A DNA stretch of 63,531 nt, the filler included, from Reticulomyxa filosa (taxonomy: Eukaryota; Protista; Foraminifera), in assembly GCA_000512085.1 (NCBI GenBank). It is 23 parts of 23 records of this genome, joined end to end, with 100 filler letters (N's around TTAATTAATTAA, not from the genome) between each part and the next. Parts side by side here need not be neighbours in the genome. Positions count along the whole stretch, not along the records: positions 20,037 to 21,508 come from ASPP01027434.1; 22 more parts are not named here. The stretch is one strand, 5' to 3'. This document shows, piece after piece, positions 8,198 through 52,908 of the stretch; positions within the stretch are counted from its first letter, which is position 1, and every line of letters begins with the position of its first letter. The translations under genes and the position numbers were made by a program. The notes under the pieces are model-generated. The model ran no database searches, was not told where the DNA came from, and was given only the letters and a program-made list of their open reading frames with translations.

Positions 8198-8668
8198 TTT
8201 ATACTTCTTTCTAATTGTTGTACTTTTTCTGCATGTATTTCTTCTTCTAGTTGAATGATAGCATTTAATTCTTGGTTTTCATTTTCCAATTTTTCAACTT
8301 TTTTCATTCATTATGGCCTTTTTGTTTGTTTTTTTTTGCTTTGGAATATTTATACTTGAGAATAAATTGAGTCTACATTCAATTCTGCTTAAATCCTCAA
8401 AACAACACATAATTTTTTTTTCAAAAAAACCAAAACTAAATGTATTAACATCAAAATTGGATCCAATGAAAAATTAATGTAAAATTTGAATAAATTTAAT
8501 ATTATTTATTTTCAATTTTCATTTTTTTAAAAAACTTTATTTATCCTTAATTTTGCTTTTCATAATCATAATTATTATTTCAAAAATATATAGAAAATTG
8601 TTTTAAGGATTCGAAAAATTAGTTTTACCTGGATCTTTAGTTGTTTTTTTTTTTGCATTAATATTGAA
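8198..8668. repeat. Internally deleted tandem duplicate of about 9482-10938
   Basis: Blocks 8198-8355, 8355-8395, 8398-8477 and 8469-8668 match 9482-9640, 9826-9866, 9998-10079 and 10742-10938 in the same order. Confidence 0.9.
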
Positions 8669-8669
8669 G

Positions 8670-10140
8670 ACGGAGACCTTAAAATTTATACAAATTTTGC
8701 TTTACAGAAAGAAATCCAAGAATTTTTGAATCCTACAAAGTAAGCTTCAGTTTGTTTATTGAGAATTGAACATTGTAAATTTTTTTTAGCTTTCTGCATG
8801 TGATTTTCCCTTTCAATCTTTTCCAAATATTTTTGCATTGCCTCAAAATTACTTTGATTGTCAGAGTTTTTTTTTTGCCTTTTATGTGGAATATCTTAAG
8901 TATATTCTATATTTTTTTTTTCGTTTTTTTGGTAAATTAATGATAGCATTGTTTGAACTTAAATTAGGCGTAATATCAACTCCATCTTTGTTTAATTGGT
9001 CAAATGTTTGCGTTAGTGTTGTTTATATTTAATTTTTTTTTTCATCAATCAAATATTTAATTTCTTCCAAGAACTTCTTGTTCCAATGTTTTATATTTTG
9101 ATAGATGTCCCATAAATTTGGAAATTTTTTTTGATTTCCGTCCATTTTTTAAAAGACAATGCTTTTTTTTTTATTATTGAAGTATATCGAATGAAGATCC
9201 AAAATAAACTCATCATCAAAATTTTTATAAGCAGGCTCGATCAACGCTTTTGCTTCCAACAGTTTGTCATTATTGTTATCCATTAGCGTCCTCTTCTATT
9301 TTATTTAATTTTTCCACTCCTTTAAAATGTTAATATTTAATCGCAATTGTGCTATTTCGATTGGTTCAGCTCTTTTTACAATAGTATTATTTGTGTTTCG
9401 TTTATTGCTTTGTCATTTCCATTTGCATTCCTACTTCATTAACATTACTTGGAATTTTTCGTCAAAAATTTTCATTTGATTCTTTATACTGCTTTCTAAT
9501 TGTTGTACTTTTTCTGCATGTATTTCTCTTTCTAGTTGAATGATATCATTCAATTCTTGGTTTTCATTTTCCAATTTTTTCAACTTTTATTCATCTATTT
9601 ACGATTTTTTTTTTGTTTTTTTGGCTTTGGAGTATTTATGCTTTCAATATTATTACTTTCATCGCATATGTCGTATATTTTACTAATATGTCTGTTTAAA
9701 TTCTTTCGGCTAACCAAACTAAGACAACAATCGTTACATTTGAATAGCTGATTATTTTTTTTTAACAAAATTGTTAACTAATATAATTTTGACTTTTTTT
9801 TTCCATTTAATTCTTTTTTGTTGCACTTGAGAATGAATTGAGTCTACATTCAATTCTGCTTAAATCATGTATTGACTTTCATTTTGTTTTAATCTAACAT
9901 TCGATTATTTTTGAATGTTTTCTTGACTTTTATTTTCTCTTTAGTCAAATCGTGTGGTGCAATAGACAATGCAAATTCAAAATTGTTATGTAACTATTCA
10001 AAACAACTGATAATTTTTTTTTTCAAAAAATCAAAACCAAATTTATTAACATGCAAAATTGGATCCAAGGAAAAATTAACATAAAAATCAAACTGAATTG
10101 GATCAGTTAAGTCTATCCGATTTAACAACAGCTATATTTC
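8670..10140 (-). pseudogene. Decayed Lys/Glu-rich coiled-coil gene of a tandem family
   Basis: Minus-strand fragments such as MDNNNDKLLEAKALIEPAYK and DQLNKDGVDITPNLSSNNAII are broken by stops and frameshifts. Confidence 0.5.
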
Positions 10141-13100
10141 TTGAATTAAATTAGCAATATCTTTTTTTCGTTCGACCTTATTAATATTGATATATGCTGC
10201 TACTTGATTAAATTTGTTGTGCTATTTATTTATTTGCACTTCTTTATGTTTTAATTGGCCAACAATATTATCTAAATCTTTACATTTTTCTTTCATCAAT
10301 AGGTCAATTATATATCATTTTTGAGATTGACTGAAAAAACCTCAACTTTTTTTACTTATTACAATTCTTATTGTTGTAGGATTGTCGTAGAAAGACCGAA
10401 ATGATTCTAAAATAATCTACGCTTTTCAAAGTAAAAGAATATGTCGTTTCGTTCTTTTATGAAAAACACATAATGGAAACACTATATTAACATTTAACAA
10501 TAATTTTACATTCTAGTAAAATTGTAATATTAAAGTTTGATTTGATAAATCTTGTAAAAAAGTTTTAGAAAAAAAGATTCTTGTCAATAACACATCATGC
10601 ATAATAAAAAAAAATGTTTATGATTTAAATTAGCAACTATTTATAAGTGTAATGAAATATCATCATATACATTACCTTAAAATGATATTGATACCAAGCC
10701 TCTAGAACAAAACAAAAGTACGACTAGTTCATCACTTTATAAAAAATTAATGTAAAATTTGAATAAATTTTTAATATTATTTTATTTATTTATTTTAAAA
10801 AACTTTATGTATCCTTAATTTCGCTTTTCTTAATCATAATTATTATTTCACAAATCATATAGAAAACTGTTTTAAGGATTCGAAAAATTAGTTTTACATT
10901 GATTCTTAGTTTATTTCTTTTTTTTTGCATTAATATTAAGTTATTTGCCAGTTGTTTAGTTATGAATGATTATTCCTAGTGTCAGTTGTAATTGTCATAT
11001 AATAATCTTATTTGTCATATTTGCCACATAGATAATTTACATATTCAACTAACAATTTATTTGTAATTGACTATATGTATAGTTGTTATATTCTAGTTGA
11101 ATTGAAGTTATTTTGTTGATATAATCAGATTTATTGTACATGCGGAAGTAGTCACTGTGTAAATTTTCGTCAAGCATTTAATTTGTATTCACATATTTGC
11201 TTTAATAAAGCTACTATGATTGCAATAATGAAGTATTTTTAGATTAAATATTCTAAAATAATAAAAACTTAAAGTAGTTTATAAATTTTGAAATGGTTTT
11301 TCGATTATAAATAATTTAAATTCAAATTTTAATCAATTCAAAAGTGATTTCTCAACATCTCACAACATCACCCCTTTTCCTCTATCAGTATCTAGTTTCA
11401 CAATAAATAATGTTTTTATTGTATCATCTTCACATAAAAGTTATAACAATTGTTTCATTTTTGATTATTCAAGAACAAATTTTATACATGTACTTAAAGT
11501 TATTTTTCTGGTAATAGATTTCATTGTAAAAAAAGAAAACTCAGGATTCAGAAAACATTATTTGTCGAATCCTTAATTTCAATTTTTCTTTTCTTATTAT
11601 TTAAAAATAATTAATACTCAATTAAAATTTTTTTTTGAAAAATTTAGATATGAATATCATTTTGTTGAACTTGTACTATCGACATTTAAGTGAACAACGA
11701 GTATATTTTTCATACCTAACGCTAAATTTTCTTAAGACTTTGAGTAGCATATATATTTGTTTATACTTTAACTTTTGTTTCATCATTGATTGTGTACCAT
11801 CTGGAACATTTGACTATTTTTTATAATTAAATAAGTAGTTTGATGTATATTATTATTTTTTTTGTTAGATTGAATAATGGTATGCTTTTATTTTATCTTA
11901 AAAATCATCAATCAAATGATAAAGTCAAATGGAAAATTGTTTTTTTAATTTCAAAAAGTTATATACATATTTATATGATAAGTAAAACACTTTGAAATTT
12001 CCATCCAAAATACAGTGTTTCAAACAATACAAAGACAATTTGTATATTTAAACAAATTTAAATTACCAATACATTCAATGCGTATTTTGAACGATATCTA
12101 AATCTAAACACATATCACAACATTATTTGCAAAGACTAAATATCAATTAAAAAAAGCAATATATTACTAGATCAACTGCCGCTAGAGCGGGTAATGAAGG
12201 CGGCACTCGAGCGCACATTTGCGGAGTTTATGCTAAGGCATCCTTTCTTAATTGGCGTCTGGCAATGAAGCCATTGGCAATTCTTGAGCGGGCAGGCGAT
12301 TATCGTTTCGGTGCAGCGTTTAACTTGGTCATCATATATCATTGAACGAGATGGCGACATGGCCTTGAAGGCTTTTGACAATTTTCCAATGGCGGCGAAT
12401 TGGACAAATCTTTTATTTTTTGTAAAAGTTAAATATATTATATTCGAGCATTCTCCATTTGTCTTTGTCGTAGAAAATAACCAAGTATATATTTGGAAAG
12501 CCCAAAGAAATACGCATCTTCATGTAATATGAAATTGTCTATAAGTTAAATTTGATTGTTATTTTTTGCTGTTTTCTACTAAAAAATTCCTTAAACAGCA
12601 ATCTTTTGCTTCAAAAGTACTTTAAAACCTTTTTGTTATCAAGCAAATTTTTGCTACTGTTTCGTATGTAAAAAAACCTATAACTGCTTTGGACTAACTT
12701 TGCTTTCTGATCGCTTTTTAAGTTTTTTTTTTGTAATAAATTATTTTTTGTTAAATTACCTTTGCTTTGTGTACTTTTTGATTTTACTTTGCAATTGATT
12801 TTATTATGTGTGCTTTTTTTTTTCAGTCTTTTCTAAATGAAAGTATGTTTCATATGATGATTCCATTTGAACTGCGCTTGTAATGAATGAATATACGGCT
12901 TTATATTCATTGCAAAAACAAAAATTTAGGCAATTTTGGTTTTAGTTGATCAATTGTACATTTGCATTCCACTTGCGACTGCTATATCATCCATTGAAAT
13001 ATATTATCACTTTCTATTTGTACGCGATCGAAAAAGCACTATATAGTAGTTATCGATCATTGTTTTTTCTTTTTCTTTTTGACATTCATCATACACCCGT

Positions 13101-19576: not shown

Positions 19577-20042
19577 GTGAAAAAAAAAAAAAAGGGTTTG
19601 ACCATCAATGTTTTTTTTATGGTGAATATAACATATGCCTCAGTAGTCCAATACGGTGGTGTTTGAAAGGATCAAAATGCCATTTTTGCCGTTAGCACAC
19701 ATTACTTCAAACATTCTTTTTGTGCGCCATAGCGGTTGGCTTTTTTTTTCCTCTTCGCAACATACATTAACTAAAAGAGAGTTATTAGACAAATAATAAT
19801 AATAAAAATCTTGCAGCGCTTTTAAAAATTGGCAAACAAACCAATCATGGTAGTAGATGAATCATGTTTGCAATTTCGTATGTCCCCTATGATCAACCAC
19901 CGAATTTAAAATCCAAAAATCACGAACAAATAAAAGNNNNNNNNNNNNNNNNNNNNNNNNNNNNNNNNNNNNNNNNNNNNTTAATTAATTAANNNNNNNN
20001 NNNNNNNNNNNNNNNNNNNNNNNNNNNNNNNNNNNNATTTAT

Positions 20043-20340
20043 AGTGACCTTGGCTGCATTAGGGCCCAGCCATCTTTGGGGAGTTCTTCGGATCTTCTTG
20101 GGGGGTGGTTCAACCTCAAAAGGGTTGATGGGTTGGTTGGTGTGCTGGGGTGAGTCTTGGGTGTATCTGTACCAAGTCGCAGGGTCTTATACATCCATGC
20201 CTACACACTAACACACGGCTGTGTTATATTGTTGATAGCAATATCAACAATGTGGCTGGTCGTGCAATGCTCCAGCTCACTATACTGTAGCGGAGATGTG
20301 GGTTCGAATCCCACCGCTGACCTTTATAAAAAAAAATAAA
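20043..20340 (+). ncRNA. Multi-hairpin structured element with 3' tRNA-like T-arm and A-rich tail (ncRNA, SINE or retroelement 3' end)
   Basis: GC-rich island with hairpins capped by cUUCGg (20086-20091) and GCAA (20238-20241), a T-arm GTGGG-TTCGAAT-CCCAC (20298-20314), then CGCTGACC and TTTATAAAAAAAAATAAAA. Confidence 0.6.
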
Positions 20341-21608
20341 ATTGTTATCTACTTTAAAAAAAACATAAAACGCATTACATACTTTGTGTGATTATAGTTT
20401 GTTTACATTATAGAATCGAAATCATGTTTCATTTGAGTATTGCAGTTTGAGCAGTTTTCGATTATGAAGATGCAATGTTTGACGAACGTTGGCATTAGAG
20501 TAAGACTATATTGTTAATGATGATAATGTCGATTTATTATTAAATTGCTTATAATCAATGTTCAAATAATTCTTATGATTAGATATTTGCGCATTTGAAT
20601 TGACTAAAAAGTTTTTTTTTGGTCCTTTTCATTTTAAATTTTAATCAAACTTCTGGTTCAAGTGCAATCTTTTTTTGTCATTTAGACTTGCTTTCGAATG
20701 GTTCTGCTATTTCAGTTCATTAACATCAATTTAAACTTTTTTTGGTAAAAAAATCAATTATTTATAAATATGTGATATTCAAAGCAAAAAGTTTTGTTTT
20801 TTTTAATACTAATTTGCCAACGAAGTCTATGAAAGTCCATCCAAAACCAAAATAAGGATATGATTTATATCTTGATTGCATTTGCAAAGAGAACGTGTAC
20901 TAACACCCGAGATTATTACAATTGTCATAATTATGATAGTTGTTGTTGTAGAGTCATAAAATTCTGTTGTTCGCAACTGTCATTGATTGATATAATAATA
21001 ATAATTATTTGTTATTCGTCTGTTATTTGAAAGTAACCAAAAAAAAGATATAATAATAACACCAAACTATATATAATGATGTTGGCATCTCTGATTTAAA
21101 TTGAACCGATTGTCCACTGGCTAAATATATTTGAACGCAAATATGATCGCAAATATAAAGTGTTGATATGCCTTCTGTTTTCCAAAATAACAAAAAAATT
21201 ATTGTTTGTTTAGAACGTTGAAACAATAGTCTCAATAACGCTGAAAGTGGAAGTAGAAAAAAAAATTGTACAATAATCGAACAAAACTGAAACAATCCAA
21301 ATATTGTATTAATAACTCTACCAATTATATGATAAAAATAATATATATCTTTTTTAATACTATTCAAAAGGTATTGCACAAAACTTCACTTCCAACTTGT
21401 GACTTGTTGTCACACATATCCTCTTTTTTCTCCGTCATTTCGTCTATCTTTTCATTTCATTTGTAGTACACATTTGTGTTCACAATGCTGATGTTTGACT
21501 CATTCAAANNNNNNNNNNNNNNNNNNNNNNNNNNNNNNNNNNNNNNNNNNNNTTAATTAATTAANNNNNNNNNNNNNNNNNNNNNNNNNNNNNNNNNNNN
21601 NNNNNNNN

Positions 21609-48975: not shown

Positions 48976-51488
48976 TGAAACTTTCAAGATATCTGAGATT
49001 ACGAGTTTGCGCAAGATCAAAGATTTACAAGATACCGAACGAAACAGCGAAAAGGGCTTTCGAAACATAACAATAATGAATGTTGCACAAAATTGAACCA
49101 CTTTTCTATTAAATGAGCAATTCCTGAATAATCATGGATTAAATCCCTATTTCACATGGCAATGGAATAGACATTGGATATTTGAAGGAGTGGATAACCC
49201 AAGACATGTGATGCCACAATATTTCTTATCTAACCTGATGGAAGCACAATCATTNNNNNNNNNNNNNNNNNNNNNNNNNNNNNNNNNNNNNNNNNNNNTT
49301 AATTAATTAANNNNNNNNNNNNNNNNNNNNNNNNNNNNNNNNNNNNNNNNNNNNTTTTATTATTTCTTTTGAAGGTTCAGCATTTGACTAGATATTCAAC
49401 AAAACAATTCAATGTAAACACGGGTATATCACAAGTTTTCTTTATAAAATAAGATTGTTGAAAATTTGCCAACATCAAATTGACCAGCACTGCATTGTTT
49501 TGTTGTAATATATCAATACTGTAATTTTATCGTAAGAAAATCACACATTATTGTTGGACCAGAGAAAACTGTTTTTCAGTTGAAGAAACAACAATAGATC
49601 ACAAATAAGCAGAATAAAAATAGACAATATCATAATCACATAAGATGTGTGACAATTGTCAACATATCTATCTGCAGAATCGATTGCATCTTCAATTGGT
49701 TTCCACTTCCATATTGGATGCATGCACATATATTATCACATTACCAATTAACTTAAAGATATTGTGAATTGTTATTAATCTTTTCTCTCTTTTTGCTCCT
49801 CTTTATGTAGTAACATAATTTCAGAAATAATAAACTTGTGGTTAATGTATGATGAAAATGAGATGCATGTACCATATTGAAAATTTTTGAAAGGAAAAAT
49901 AATGAATTATAGTTATTATTGTCAATAAAAAATATTGAAAACAAGAAGGATTTGTAAAAGACAAAATTTATATCATTTATTTCAAATAACAATAATACAA
50001 AGTGAAGAAGCAACTCGATAATTATAGATTTGACAAATGAATAAATAAAAAAAAAATTTTAAATTGAAAATTATGATAAGTTGAAGAGTTCCTTAAAAAG
50101 GGTCTAGTTCCAGATTTTTTATTTTTGTATGTTGCATCATTTGTTTTCTTCATTGTTTCCAAAGTTTACAAGGATAGAATTTACACTCCCGGATTGCCGA
50201 AGAAATTCTGTGTACGAAAGTAGTCGAAAGAGTTCAAAGAGATTATAATGATCTTTTTTCATTGAAAAATATTTTCGATCTATATGCACAAGATATCAAA
50301 ACAATCAGGCAGCACCAAAGAATAGCTTACAAAGATCTTTATCTAAGCAATCATTTGAGATACTTTAGATTTTTTTCGAGACAGTCAAAACTTTGACTTT
50401 TGCACTGTTTCNNNNNNNNNNNNNNNNNNNNNNNNNNNNNNNNNNNNNNNNNNNNTTAATTAATTAANNNNNNNNNNNNNNNNNNNNNNNNNNNNNNNNN
50501 NNNNNNNNNNNAAAAAAAAAACTACCGAACGGACAATTTGTTTCACCTTTAGTAAATTGTAGAATTTTTTTGTAAACAATAATTATTGACAAGTGTCTTT
50601 TTTTTTATGAAATGTGCACAATTTATTGTTGGTACTGACCATATCCATCCGCTTTAGTATGAAAAGGGATGAGAGAAGTGTTCTTTTATGTGTCTTGTCG
50701 GATTGTCTAGATAGCTTGTAAGTTAATAAACTTACAAATAATTTTGACAACACGACTAAGATAAAACCATTTTCTTATGTAAATAATACAGAAAGAACGT
50801 GTTAATTGTTGATGTTTTTTTCCATTATCTTTCTGAATATTATTGCATATTGCAACATTAATTATTATCTAAAAAAATACACTATACAATTTACAAAGTA
50901 AGTATCACTAGATGGAAAATACAAAAAAGGAACTAGGCATTAACTCGAATTACCGTAACTAAATCAAAAGTGCATAGTCATAATAAAAGAATAACAGAAT
51001 AGACTCAGTATTTTTGAACATATTCCACAAAAACTGAAAAGTGGTGCTGACACAGATCAATTGTACGTGTTGGTGATTACATTAAAATGGTGAATCAACA
51101 TTATAAAATAAGGCAATTTATTCTGACTACTTACGCTTTTACAAGTTTTCTTTTACACTGTTAAGACGATTAATAAGCAAAAAAAATTGATAAAATAAAA
51201 CTACAGTTGTTTTACATTACATTTTAAAGATTTATCAAAAAGGAATTTGCATTTTTTTAAGTACTACCACTTATCAACAAATTACATATAACGAATTCTT
51301 TTAATTACTCGTCAAGCCATTTTATATGAATAATTTTTTCAAGAATTTTTTAGCTATTTAAACAATAGAAAAAAAAAACAATAAAGTTTAGTAACGATTT
51401 TAAATGTTTTGTCAAGGTGGCAAGAACGTTAAAACTGACATCCTCCTTCCGAACAAAGGTTTTTTTGATTCGACATCATTTTTGGATC

Positions 51489-52829: not shown

Positions 52830-52908
52830 TGTAGGAGAAGCTCCTACTGTATAGAGAGAATCGCTAAAGGGGCTGATGAGCTCCCTGTGGGTTAAACTTT
52901 TCCTAACA
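52830..52908 (+). ncRNA. Degenerate type III hammerhead ribozyme-like motif
   Basis: CTGATGA core at 52873-52879 within three stems in hammerhead register; GAAA is replaced by TAAA and the cleavage triplet is GCT. Confidence 0.45.

Follow-up and report, generated by a model that had tools for sequence, protein, structure and literature searches.

The left end of a small contig of the foraminiferan Reticulomyxa filosa carries a real, previously undescribed unit, predicted to fold strongly and probably derived from tRNA-Leu, read from one copy, whose body occupies positions 20044-20322 on the + strand (279 nt). The window, meaning the whole stretch of DNA analysed (63,531 nucleotides including filler), consists of 23 small R. 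filosa contigs joined by N spacers, and the unit lies on the contig at 20037-21508. A DEAD-box protein encoded on another of these contigs has 100% identity to one from R. filosa, which identifies the host. The GC content of the body is 51%, compared with 26% in the 1.2 kb of downstream flank, and the limits of the body were set by this GC step together with a flanking repeat and tRNA position 73. The sequence TTTATA stands immediately before 20044 (20038-20043, + strand) and immediately after 20322, right after tRNA position 73 (20323-20328, + strand), forming an exact 6-nt direct repeat and candidate target-site duplication, for which the chance is 0.001-0.003 per position before correction for boundary choice. 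Since the last four bases of the left copy also pair within the closing stem of the predicted fold, that copy may belong to the RNA rather than to the target site.

No poly(A) or simple-repeat tail was found between the flanking repeats. An A9 run at 20328-20336 (+ strand), which the original prediction had counted as evidence of a tail, lies beyond the flanking repeat and loses that weight, being at background frequency (59 runs of at least nine A on the + strand in 61,331 window bases). No T4 terminator occurs within 130 nt of the unit, the first being at 20455, and there is no second copy elsewhere in the contig or in the 61 kb of sequence that the window holds. Protein coding was rejected on the basis of stops in all six frames and the absence of any 100-aa ORF covering the unit. 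The left contig edge, at 20037, is only 7 bases ahead of the body; the original prediction was right about the edge, but a 5' part missing beyond it is not implied, because six edge bases complete an 8-bp stem (20040-20047/20277-20284) and the unit is thereby closed inside the contig. The edge itself needs no repeat element as its explanation, since 20 of the 46 contig ends in the window fall in simple repeats.

Predicted fold of the unit

That the DNA would fold better than its shuffled versions was borne out for the + strand of 20043-20340 (z = -4.36; 0 of 200 shuffles as low), the - strand of the same interval giving z = -2.12 (3 of 200 shuffles). On 20037-20292 (+ strand) the z score was -5.60, and the minimum free energy (MFE) and centroid structures nearly coincided, both at -105 kcal/mol. 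The first 256 bases of the contig had the lowest folding energy among 456 strand-windows of equal size and ranked first of 90 in a rough z scan that covered 90 of these 456 segments with 10 shuffles each, 5 of the 90 lying at -4 or below. In the predicted fold 73% of the unit is paired, the pair probabilities (p) having been computed on 20037-20330.

A closing stem of approximately 17 bp, with its 5' strand at 20040-20060 (+ strand) pairing with 20266-20284, encloses a four-way junction from which domains I, II and III emerge. A match comparable to its perfect 8-bp helix (p = 0.97) was seen in 184 of 20,000 shuffles, and the 21-nt 5' arm of the stem, tested alone as a duplex, was matched by 116 of 300 shuffled arms. 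Domain I (20063-20134, + strand, z = -2.1) is a three-way junction carrying a cUUCGg hairpin and a second hairpin, both of which had been drawn manually in the original prediction and were recovered by computation, the former with its base at 20068-20077/20101-20110 (p = 0.82) and its cUUCGg cap (p = 0.93), the latter at 20110-20116/20122-20128 (p = 0.95), along with the helix enclosing them (20063-20068/20129-20134, p = 0.91). Domain II (20136-20212, + strand, z = -2.6) is a long irregular hairpin, the third of those proposed; the arm exists, but its limits are not 20140-20216 as first drawn, and its inner helix (20158-20166/20189-20197) reached p = 0.99. Domain III (20214-20264, + strand, z = -7.9) is a 23-bp hairpin with a GCAA loop that extends the fourth hairpin seen earlier (20223-20256, p = 1.0); the tRNA copy described below begins with the 3' arm of this domain. 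The fourth hairpin, with z = -7.2 alone, supplies much of the total signal, although the rest of the fold still had z = -2.98 after its removal (0 of 60 shuffles).

G.U pairs accounted for 19 of the 94 centroid pairs, and none of the 1x1 mismatches was A.C; this pattern marks the + strand as the RNA strand, in agreement with what had been argued from the G.U pairs, and the z score of the - strand is weaker. Strand-biased C-to-T and A-to-G drift can produce a one-stranded G.U excess, and the excess alone is therefore no proof of selection.

Two bases after the closing stem begins a predicted minihelix of 36 nt (20287-20322, + strand, p = 0.71), in which 20287-20292 pairs with the acceptor 3' strand (20315-20321) and is followed by a 5-nt linker and the T arm. 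The new pairing comprises six Watson-Crick pairs and one bulge and opens with a G1-C72 pair; as much pairing is found in 2 of 234 real tRNAs and in 69 of 3000 shuffles, and the energy gain of the minihelix was ordinary (38 of 234 real tRNAs). In domain III as well as in the closing stem, the tRNA 5' half supplies the 3' strand, and for that reason it is masked in the predicted fold, in which only the top half of the terminal tRNA copy appears to be exposed. Competing arrangements were less stable than the preferred fold at -117.3 kcal/mol: an acceptor partner at 20136-20142 gave -109.4 kcal/mol, and a Leu skeleton running from 20044 with a 185-nt insert gave -98.6 kcal/mol. The junction of a GGTCG/TGACC stem and a CTCC/GGAG arm in the original prediction did not survive in context, where it was 11 kcal/mol worse (-106.3 kcal/mol), and was the MFE structure only for the isolated interval 20257-20322 (z = -1.99; 7 of 200 shuffles).

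tRNA likeness at the 3' and 5' ends

At the 3' end, the T arm (20298-20314, perfect as originally noted) with its consensus B box (20301-20311) and the acceptor 3' strand together make up 24 nt (20298-20321, + strand) identical to tRNA genes. Exact matches to these 24 nt were found at 21 metagenome, 3 genome and 1 viral loci. Manual reading of the 21 metagenome loci identified 11 intron-bearing eukaryotic Leu(CAA) genes, 4 bacterial tRNA-Cys genes and 1 phage Leu(CAA) array, the remaining 5 being degenerate sequences of tRNA-like type; the upstream hairpins of the element were present in none of the 21. Across 20246-20322 (+ strand) 57 of 84 positions (68%) agreed with those of a spliced eukaryotic Leu(CAA) gene, a value that includes the 24 nt by which those genes were chosen. 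The Leu 5' exons, in contrast, constitute an independent probe, because the genes were selected by the 3' 24 nt and not by their exons. The Leu(CAA) 5' exon aligned at 20246-20281 (20243/46-20281 across the two aligning variants), just the place expected for a 5' half, with 24 of 38 positions identical. When shuffles were scored anywhere in the element, two of three exon variants were equalled by 8 and 20 of 1000, and the third failed to align at 20246-20281 (348 of 1000); when the search was confined to the 62 nt that precede the T stem, 0 of 2000 shuffles equalled the top exon score. The aligning Leu exons ranked first and second among 223 tRNA 5' halves, and under a null that took the best of all 223 halves the exon score was reached in 19 of 100 shuffles. 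We conclude with moderate confidence from these alignments that 20246-20322 is probably a whole decayed tRNA-Leu, and the exon match at 20246-20281 speaks against the view that the 3' end is a tRNA mimic of no D- or anticodon-arm ancestry. A piece of the Leu 3' exon aligned nowhere in the element (243-422 of 500 shuffles), profile HMMs of tRNA 5' halves gave no match on the real sequence and were uninformative, and when the 3' region was aligned by MAFFT to four Leu genes in unspliced form, the correspondence hardly extended past the common 3' end, the 5' part of the element falling against the introns of those genes.

Compared with eukaryotic tRNA-Leu(CAA), the element shares 24 of 24 3'-end positions and 24 of 38 5'-exon positions, as well as the offset of T8-G9-G10-C11, but it has C73 instead of A73, a short variable region, broken stems and no T4. 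Four of the seven acceptor pairs are kept and three are broken, A14 and G18G19 are missing, the anticodon stem is 3 bp long, position 70 is G, and CCA is not encoded. Judged from its bases, the copy cannot work as a tRNA, because the acceptor, D and anticodon stems are broken and position 73 is C. A functional tRNA gene was rejected, ARAGORN calling none, the Rfam tRNA model scoring 16.2 bits on the T arm only and the acceptor keeping 4 of 7 pairs, and so was a permuted tRNA, no 5' half being present after 20322 (cf. PMC3978253). A tRNA-Leu cloverleaf was set aside as well, upstream arms 20040-20060 and 20214-20237 pairing with the tRNA 5' half in the predicted fold.

Rfam searches of the 3' end at E values up to 10 returned only T-arm matches and one full-length antisense match, to RF04354 (Plastid-ycf2 5'UTR), over 20244-20322 (21.8 bits, E = 0.0086); the search of the 3' half yielded no tRNA score, since overlapping clan hits were dropped. 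The RF04354 consensus itself reads as an antisense tRNA gene with the T loop and D arm reversed, trnI-CAU adjoins ycf2 in plastids, and a plastid tRNA read from the opposite strand may be what this family represents. If RF04354 is indeed the antisense of a plastid tRNA gene, the match supports a tRNA origin.

The matching loci yielded observations of their own. Two tRNA-Leu(CAA) genes with the usual anticodon intron (L016 and L024) carry an extra D-loop insert of ~49 nt, lying ~145-95 bases upstream of the T arm, with the spliceosomal-intron signals GT...CTAAC...TAG; the insert is absent from the near-identical L007, L020 and L021 and could be a spliceosomal intron that lies within a tRNA gene. 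Five degenerate tRNA-headed sequences (L009, L014, L019, L011 and L022), which have the T arm and acceptor strand in common with the element, gave no ARAGORN call without introns and resemble SINE heads or pseudogenes. Four phage tRNA-like genes (L028, L044, L045 and L048) have a clear anticodon arm, a long variable region and an odd D region.

At the 5' end, a degenerate A-box-like motif without the invariant A14 and departing from the strict consensus lies at +8 (20051-20063, + strand), and a B-box-like GGTTCAA lies at +64 inside domain I (20107-20113, + strand), so that +8/+64 reproduces a tRNA-like spacing. The TGGC at +8 is one of only two in the element, the other being T8-G9-G10-C11 of the tRNA copy, and GGTTCRA occurs only at +64 and in the T arm. 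A TRGC in the first 30 nt with GGTTCRA 40-75 nt further on was found in 32 of 20,000 shuffles, the motif having been relaxed after inspection of the sequence. A whole-length Leu alignment of the left unit starts exactly at 20044 and is not significant (23-115 of 300 shuffles), and neither is the likeness between the putative left and right units (291-415 of 500 shuffles).

Explanations considered for the unit

The explanation we favour, at a little short of an even chance, is a composite, tRNA-Leu-derived, SINE-like Pol III element that was retroposed. From the observed boundaries, flanking repeat, computed fold, 24-nt tRNA identity and Leu-exon alignment, we infer transcription, trimming and mobility along the following lines. 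A tRNA-Leu(CAA) copy already in existence would have become the right-hand unit and been attached to a left-hand unit of older origin, whose A/B-box-like motifs, kept at tRNA spacing (+8, +64), would act as the promoter; Pol III would start near 20044, and the perfect B box at 20301 could be a second factor-binding site. Pairing of arms 20040-20060 and 20214-20237 with the tRNA 5' half would leave no cloverleaf, and the freed acceptor strand would re-pair with 20287-20292 to form the minihelix, which would allow RNase Z trimming at position 73, the end of the body. A borrowed LINE-type reverse transcriptase would insert the RNA into AT-rich DNA, duplicating six target bases.

In favour of this SINE-like reading are the self-contained unit, the sharp GC step and the exact 6-nt repeat at both ends; counted against it are the lack of a strict A box, of T4, of a tail and of a second copy in the window. 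Measured against SINEBase, which in PMC3531059 defines SINEs by a length of 75-662 nt and at least 60% identity to tRNA over 60 nt, the element fits in length (279 nt, hence below 1 kb) and in tRNA identity (68% over 20246-20322, the 24 selection nt included). The 5' head has the motif layout reached by 32 of 20,000 shuffles, no strict A box and no significant whole-length Leu match; as for tail and duplication, the 6-nt flanking repeat is present and the A run lies outside it at background frequency. Typical SINEs carry a poly(A) or simple-repeat tail inside the duplication, whereas this element has no such tail, and to our knowledge tetraloops and 73% pairing exceed what a SINE needs. Likeness to complex SINEs resides in the length of ~280 nt, the 3' tRNA-derived unit, the promoter-like 5' motifs and the short flanking repeat. 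The Culex Twin SINE is reportedly of dimeric tRNA origin. The premise of the original prediction that tRNA parts of SINEs occur only at the 5' end fails, given that dimeric 7SL-tRNA SINEs with a 3' tRNA unit, such as B1-dID of rodents, are described in PMC13023118. It is quite conceivable, at somewhat under even probability, that the unit works like a complex SINE, but we do not assign it to the class itself. If it is a SINE, tRNA-derived composite retroposons extend to Rhizaria, and insertion of a tail-less RNA ending at tRNA position 73 is suggested.

The well-defined fold, with MFE and centroid at -105 kcal/mol, z = -5.6 and cUUCGg and GCAA loops, also fits a functional single- or low-copy ncRNA gene, a possible but doubtful reading in which the 245-nt four-way domain would be the working RNA and the minihelix its processing handle: cleavage by RNase P ahead of G20287 and by RNase Z behind C20322, as in mascRNA of MALAT1, would release the 245-nt domain and a 36-nt tRNA-like piece. 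It draws further on the 19 G.U pairs against no A.C, on a 24-nt 3' strand that stayed unchanged while the tRNA 5' half drifted by about one-third, and on a new acceptor partner that opens with G1-C72, the closing stem ending 2 nt before that G. However, a U-rich or A-rich triple-helix element is absent, the mascRNA model scores 11 bits against a cut-off of 42.5, there is no D arm, and the minihelix has 11 bp with a bulge and an ordinary energy gain (38 of 234); nor does the element contain an SRP helix 8, an RNase P/MRP motif, an Sm site, a box C or a telomere template motif, or have a homologue in the collections searched. A processed ncRNA would represent a second, independent use of tRNA-processing enzymes for an RNA 3' end. 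We give a similarly low probability to a bolder idea, an undescribed foraminiferan class of tRNA-born RNA in which antisense arms would strip tRNA-Leu of its D/anticodon half and the minihelix would be used for cleavage or tail-less retroposition. The six-base partner would rebuild the acceptor end as a bare minihelix, and either RNase P and RNase Z would excise the 245-nt RNA or a reverse transcriptase would copy the unit without poly(A). Were this true, mascRNA-like processing or tail-less retroposition would occur far outside vertebrates. The unit also illustrates how a tRNA can turn into a new RNA by refolding against an inverted copy of itself.

The two long stems come close to complementing the 5' half of the tRNA copy, their mismatches being mostly transitions. 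This fits a dead relic, namely a tRNA-Leu pseudogene with a fold-back (inverted) duplication of its 5' half, later split by other hairpin DNA. The G.U excess would then reflect drift of the non-template strand (C-to-T and A-to-G) without selection, strand-biased mutation being known at Pol III genes; the broken cloverleaf and the large share of z due to the fourth hairpin (-7.2 alone, -2.98 without it) point the same way, and the element would be an ordinary one. We nevertheless consider a relic unlikely: domains I and II are no tRNA copies, yet they fold cleanly into the junction with 1-2-nt linkers, and the stable tetraloops, intact 24-nt 3' end and exact flanking repeat also stand against it. 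Decidedly improbable is a tRNA gene truncated by the contig edge, with its first 30 bases falling outside, and interrupted at the canonical 37/38 site by a 243-nt intron (20044-20286), or an unspliced scaffold of this kind. Positions 31-37, carrying a UAU (Ile) anticodon, would then correspond to the seven bases at the contig edge, and the 3' exon to 20287-20322; the edge bases do fit A31-U39, U32, U33 and a purine at 37, U32 could form a pair with the intron base third from the end, the closing helix is separated from position 39 by a 3-nt bulge, and the five bases preceding the T stem are also seen in phage tRNAs, as a short variable loop. This intron reading was demoted because the element has C73, where 97 of 97 Ile(UAU) genes have A73, and G38, which occurs in 1 of 82 (both counts from a viral and phage set, not foraminiferan), and because 243 nt exceeds the 6-133 nt given for known eukaryotic tRNA introns in PMC4090602. 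In addition, all 16 long intron-type Ile(UAU) genes among the matches listed have C32 and A38, the stable helix lies 2 nt out of register for splicing, and the Leu-exon match and the local acceptor partner are left unexplained. Insertion of a MITE (20042-20282, with a TA duplication) beside or into a tRNA remnant would account for the inverted repeats at the ends, perfect over 8 bp (TA included) and imperfect over ~20 bp, but what would be the right 'terminal repeat' is simply the tRNA-like sequence, and its pairing is G.U-rich and one-stranded, which is unexpected for a DNA terminal repeat; we regard this as scarcely credible.

Known systems, homologue searches and other window features

The element resembles mascRNA and MEN-beta (of MALAT1 and NEAT1) in placing a tRNA-like top half, a possible guide for RNase P and RNase Z, behind a structured RNA. 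It differs from mascRNA (RF01684, 11 bits versus 42.5) in being a minihelix only, derived from a recognisable tRNA-Leu, with no run of 5 U and no A-rich tract or triple-helix element, and an upstream triple helix is what mascRNA needs according to PMC8457004. In the element and in the tmRNA tRNA-like domain alike, a large structured domain precedes the T arm and acceptor strand; tmRNA was rejected in view of the missing G3.U70, A73 and CCA, no ARAGORN call and a score of 11.5 bits versus 47. Helenus TRIMs are LTR elements with a tRNA-like sequence within the LTR (PMC10886601). Like them, the unit may be a mobile element of small size, and it carries A/B-box-like motifs together with a tRNA-like sequence that is non-functional, but no second LTR, primer-binding site or polypurine tract was found in the contig, and its repeat is 6 bp, not 4-5. 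LTR ends follow the TG...CA rule, and those of the element do not, although a single unit in contig and window would by itself be compatible with a solo LTR.

The broader outline of the original prediction, an RNA-like unit ending in a tRNA top half and plausibly a retroelement or ncRNA, held up, and the Rfam check it had proposed gave no gathering-level match to a known family. On 20037-20290, Rfam at E values up to 10 returned only a 14-bit miRNA hairpin match. SRP RNA, RNase P/MRP RNA, U snRNA, C/D snoRNA, telomerase RNA and hammerhead/HDV ribozymes were rejected, no Rfam match and none of the core motifs of these families being found; likenesses seen by eye to U3, U1, Y RNA, group I introns and the HDV ribozyme failed in order or pairing. 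Homology searches turned up tRNA 3' ends and nothing else. A long-variable-arm pattern had no match in the metagenomes, a junction 16-mer had none in viral contigs, and a closing-stem pattern hit at least 120 loci in viral contigs, none of them related among the matches listed. The upstream 261 nt compared with 288 loci gave just two 14-nt matches (E = 0.48), and blastn against phages and plasmids gave only 21-36-nt matches, those in the T arm mostly on tRNA-Leu where annotated. The openly accessible literature searched contained no description of a structured ncRNA or SINE in Reticulomyxa or other foraminifera; the first foraminiferan tRNA genes were reported in PMC3079666, and tRNA abundance data are given as lacking for foraminifera in PMC11980380.

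Other parts of the window also drew attention. A GC-richer contig end at 52830-52908 contains a 6-bp hairpin and a CTGATGAG motif resembling a hammerhead core; by eye, GAAA and the closing stems were a poor match to that ribozyme, and no Rfam gathering match was obtained. An AT-rich contig carries, in a part with no long ORF, internal direct repeats of 160-205 nt and ~88% identity at 8198-8665, 9483-9866 and 10739-10937. The AT-rich interval 50512-50767 had z of about -6 on both strands (10 shuffles only) and includes a 28-nt imperfect inverted repeat at 50697-50756; because its folding is symmetric on both strands, it resembles a DNA palindrome.
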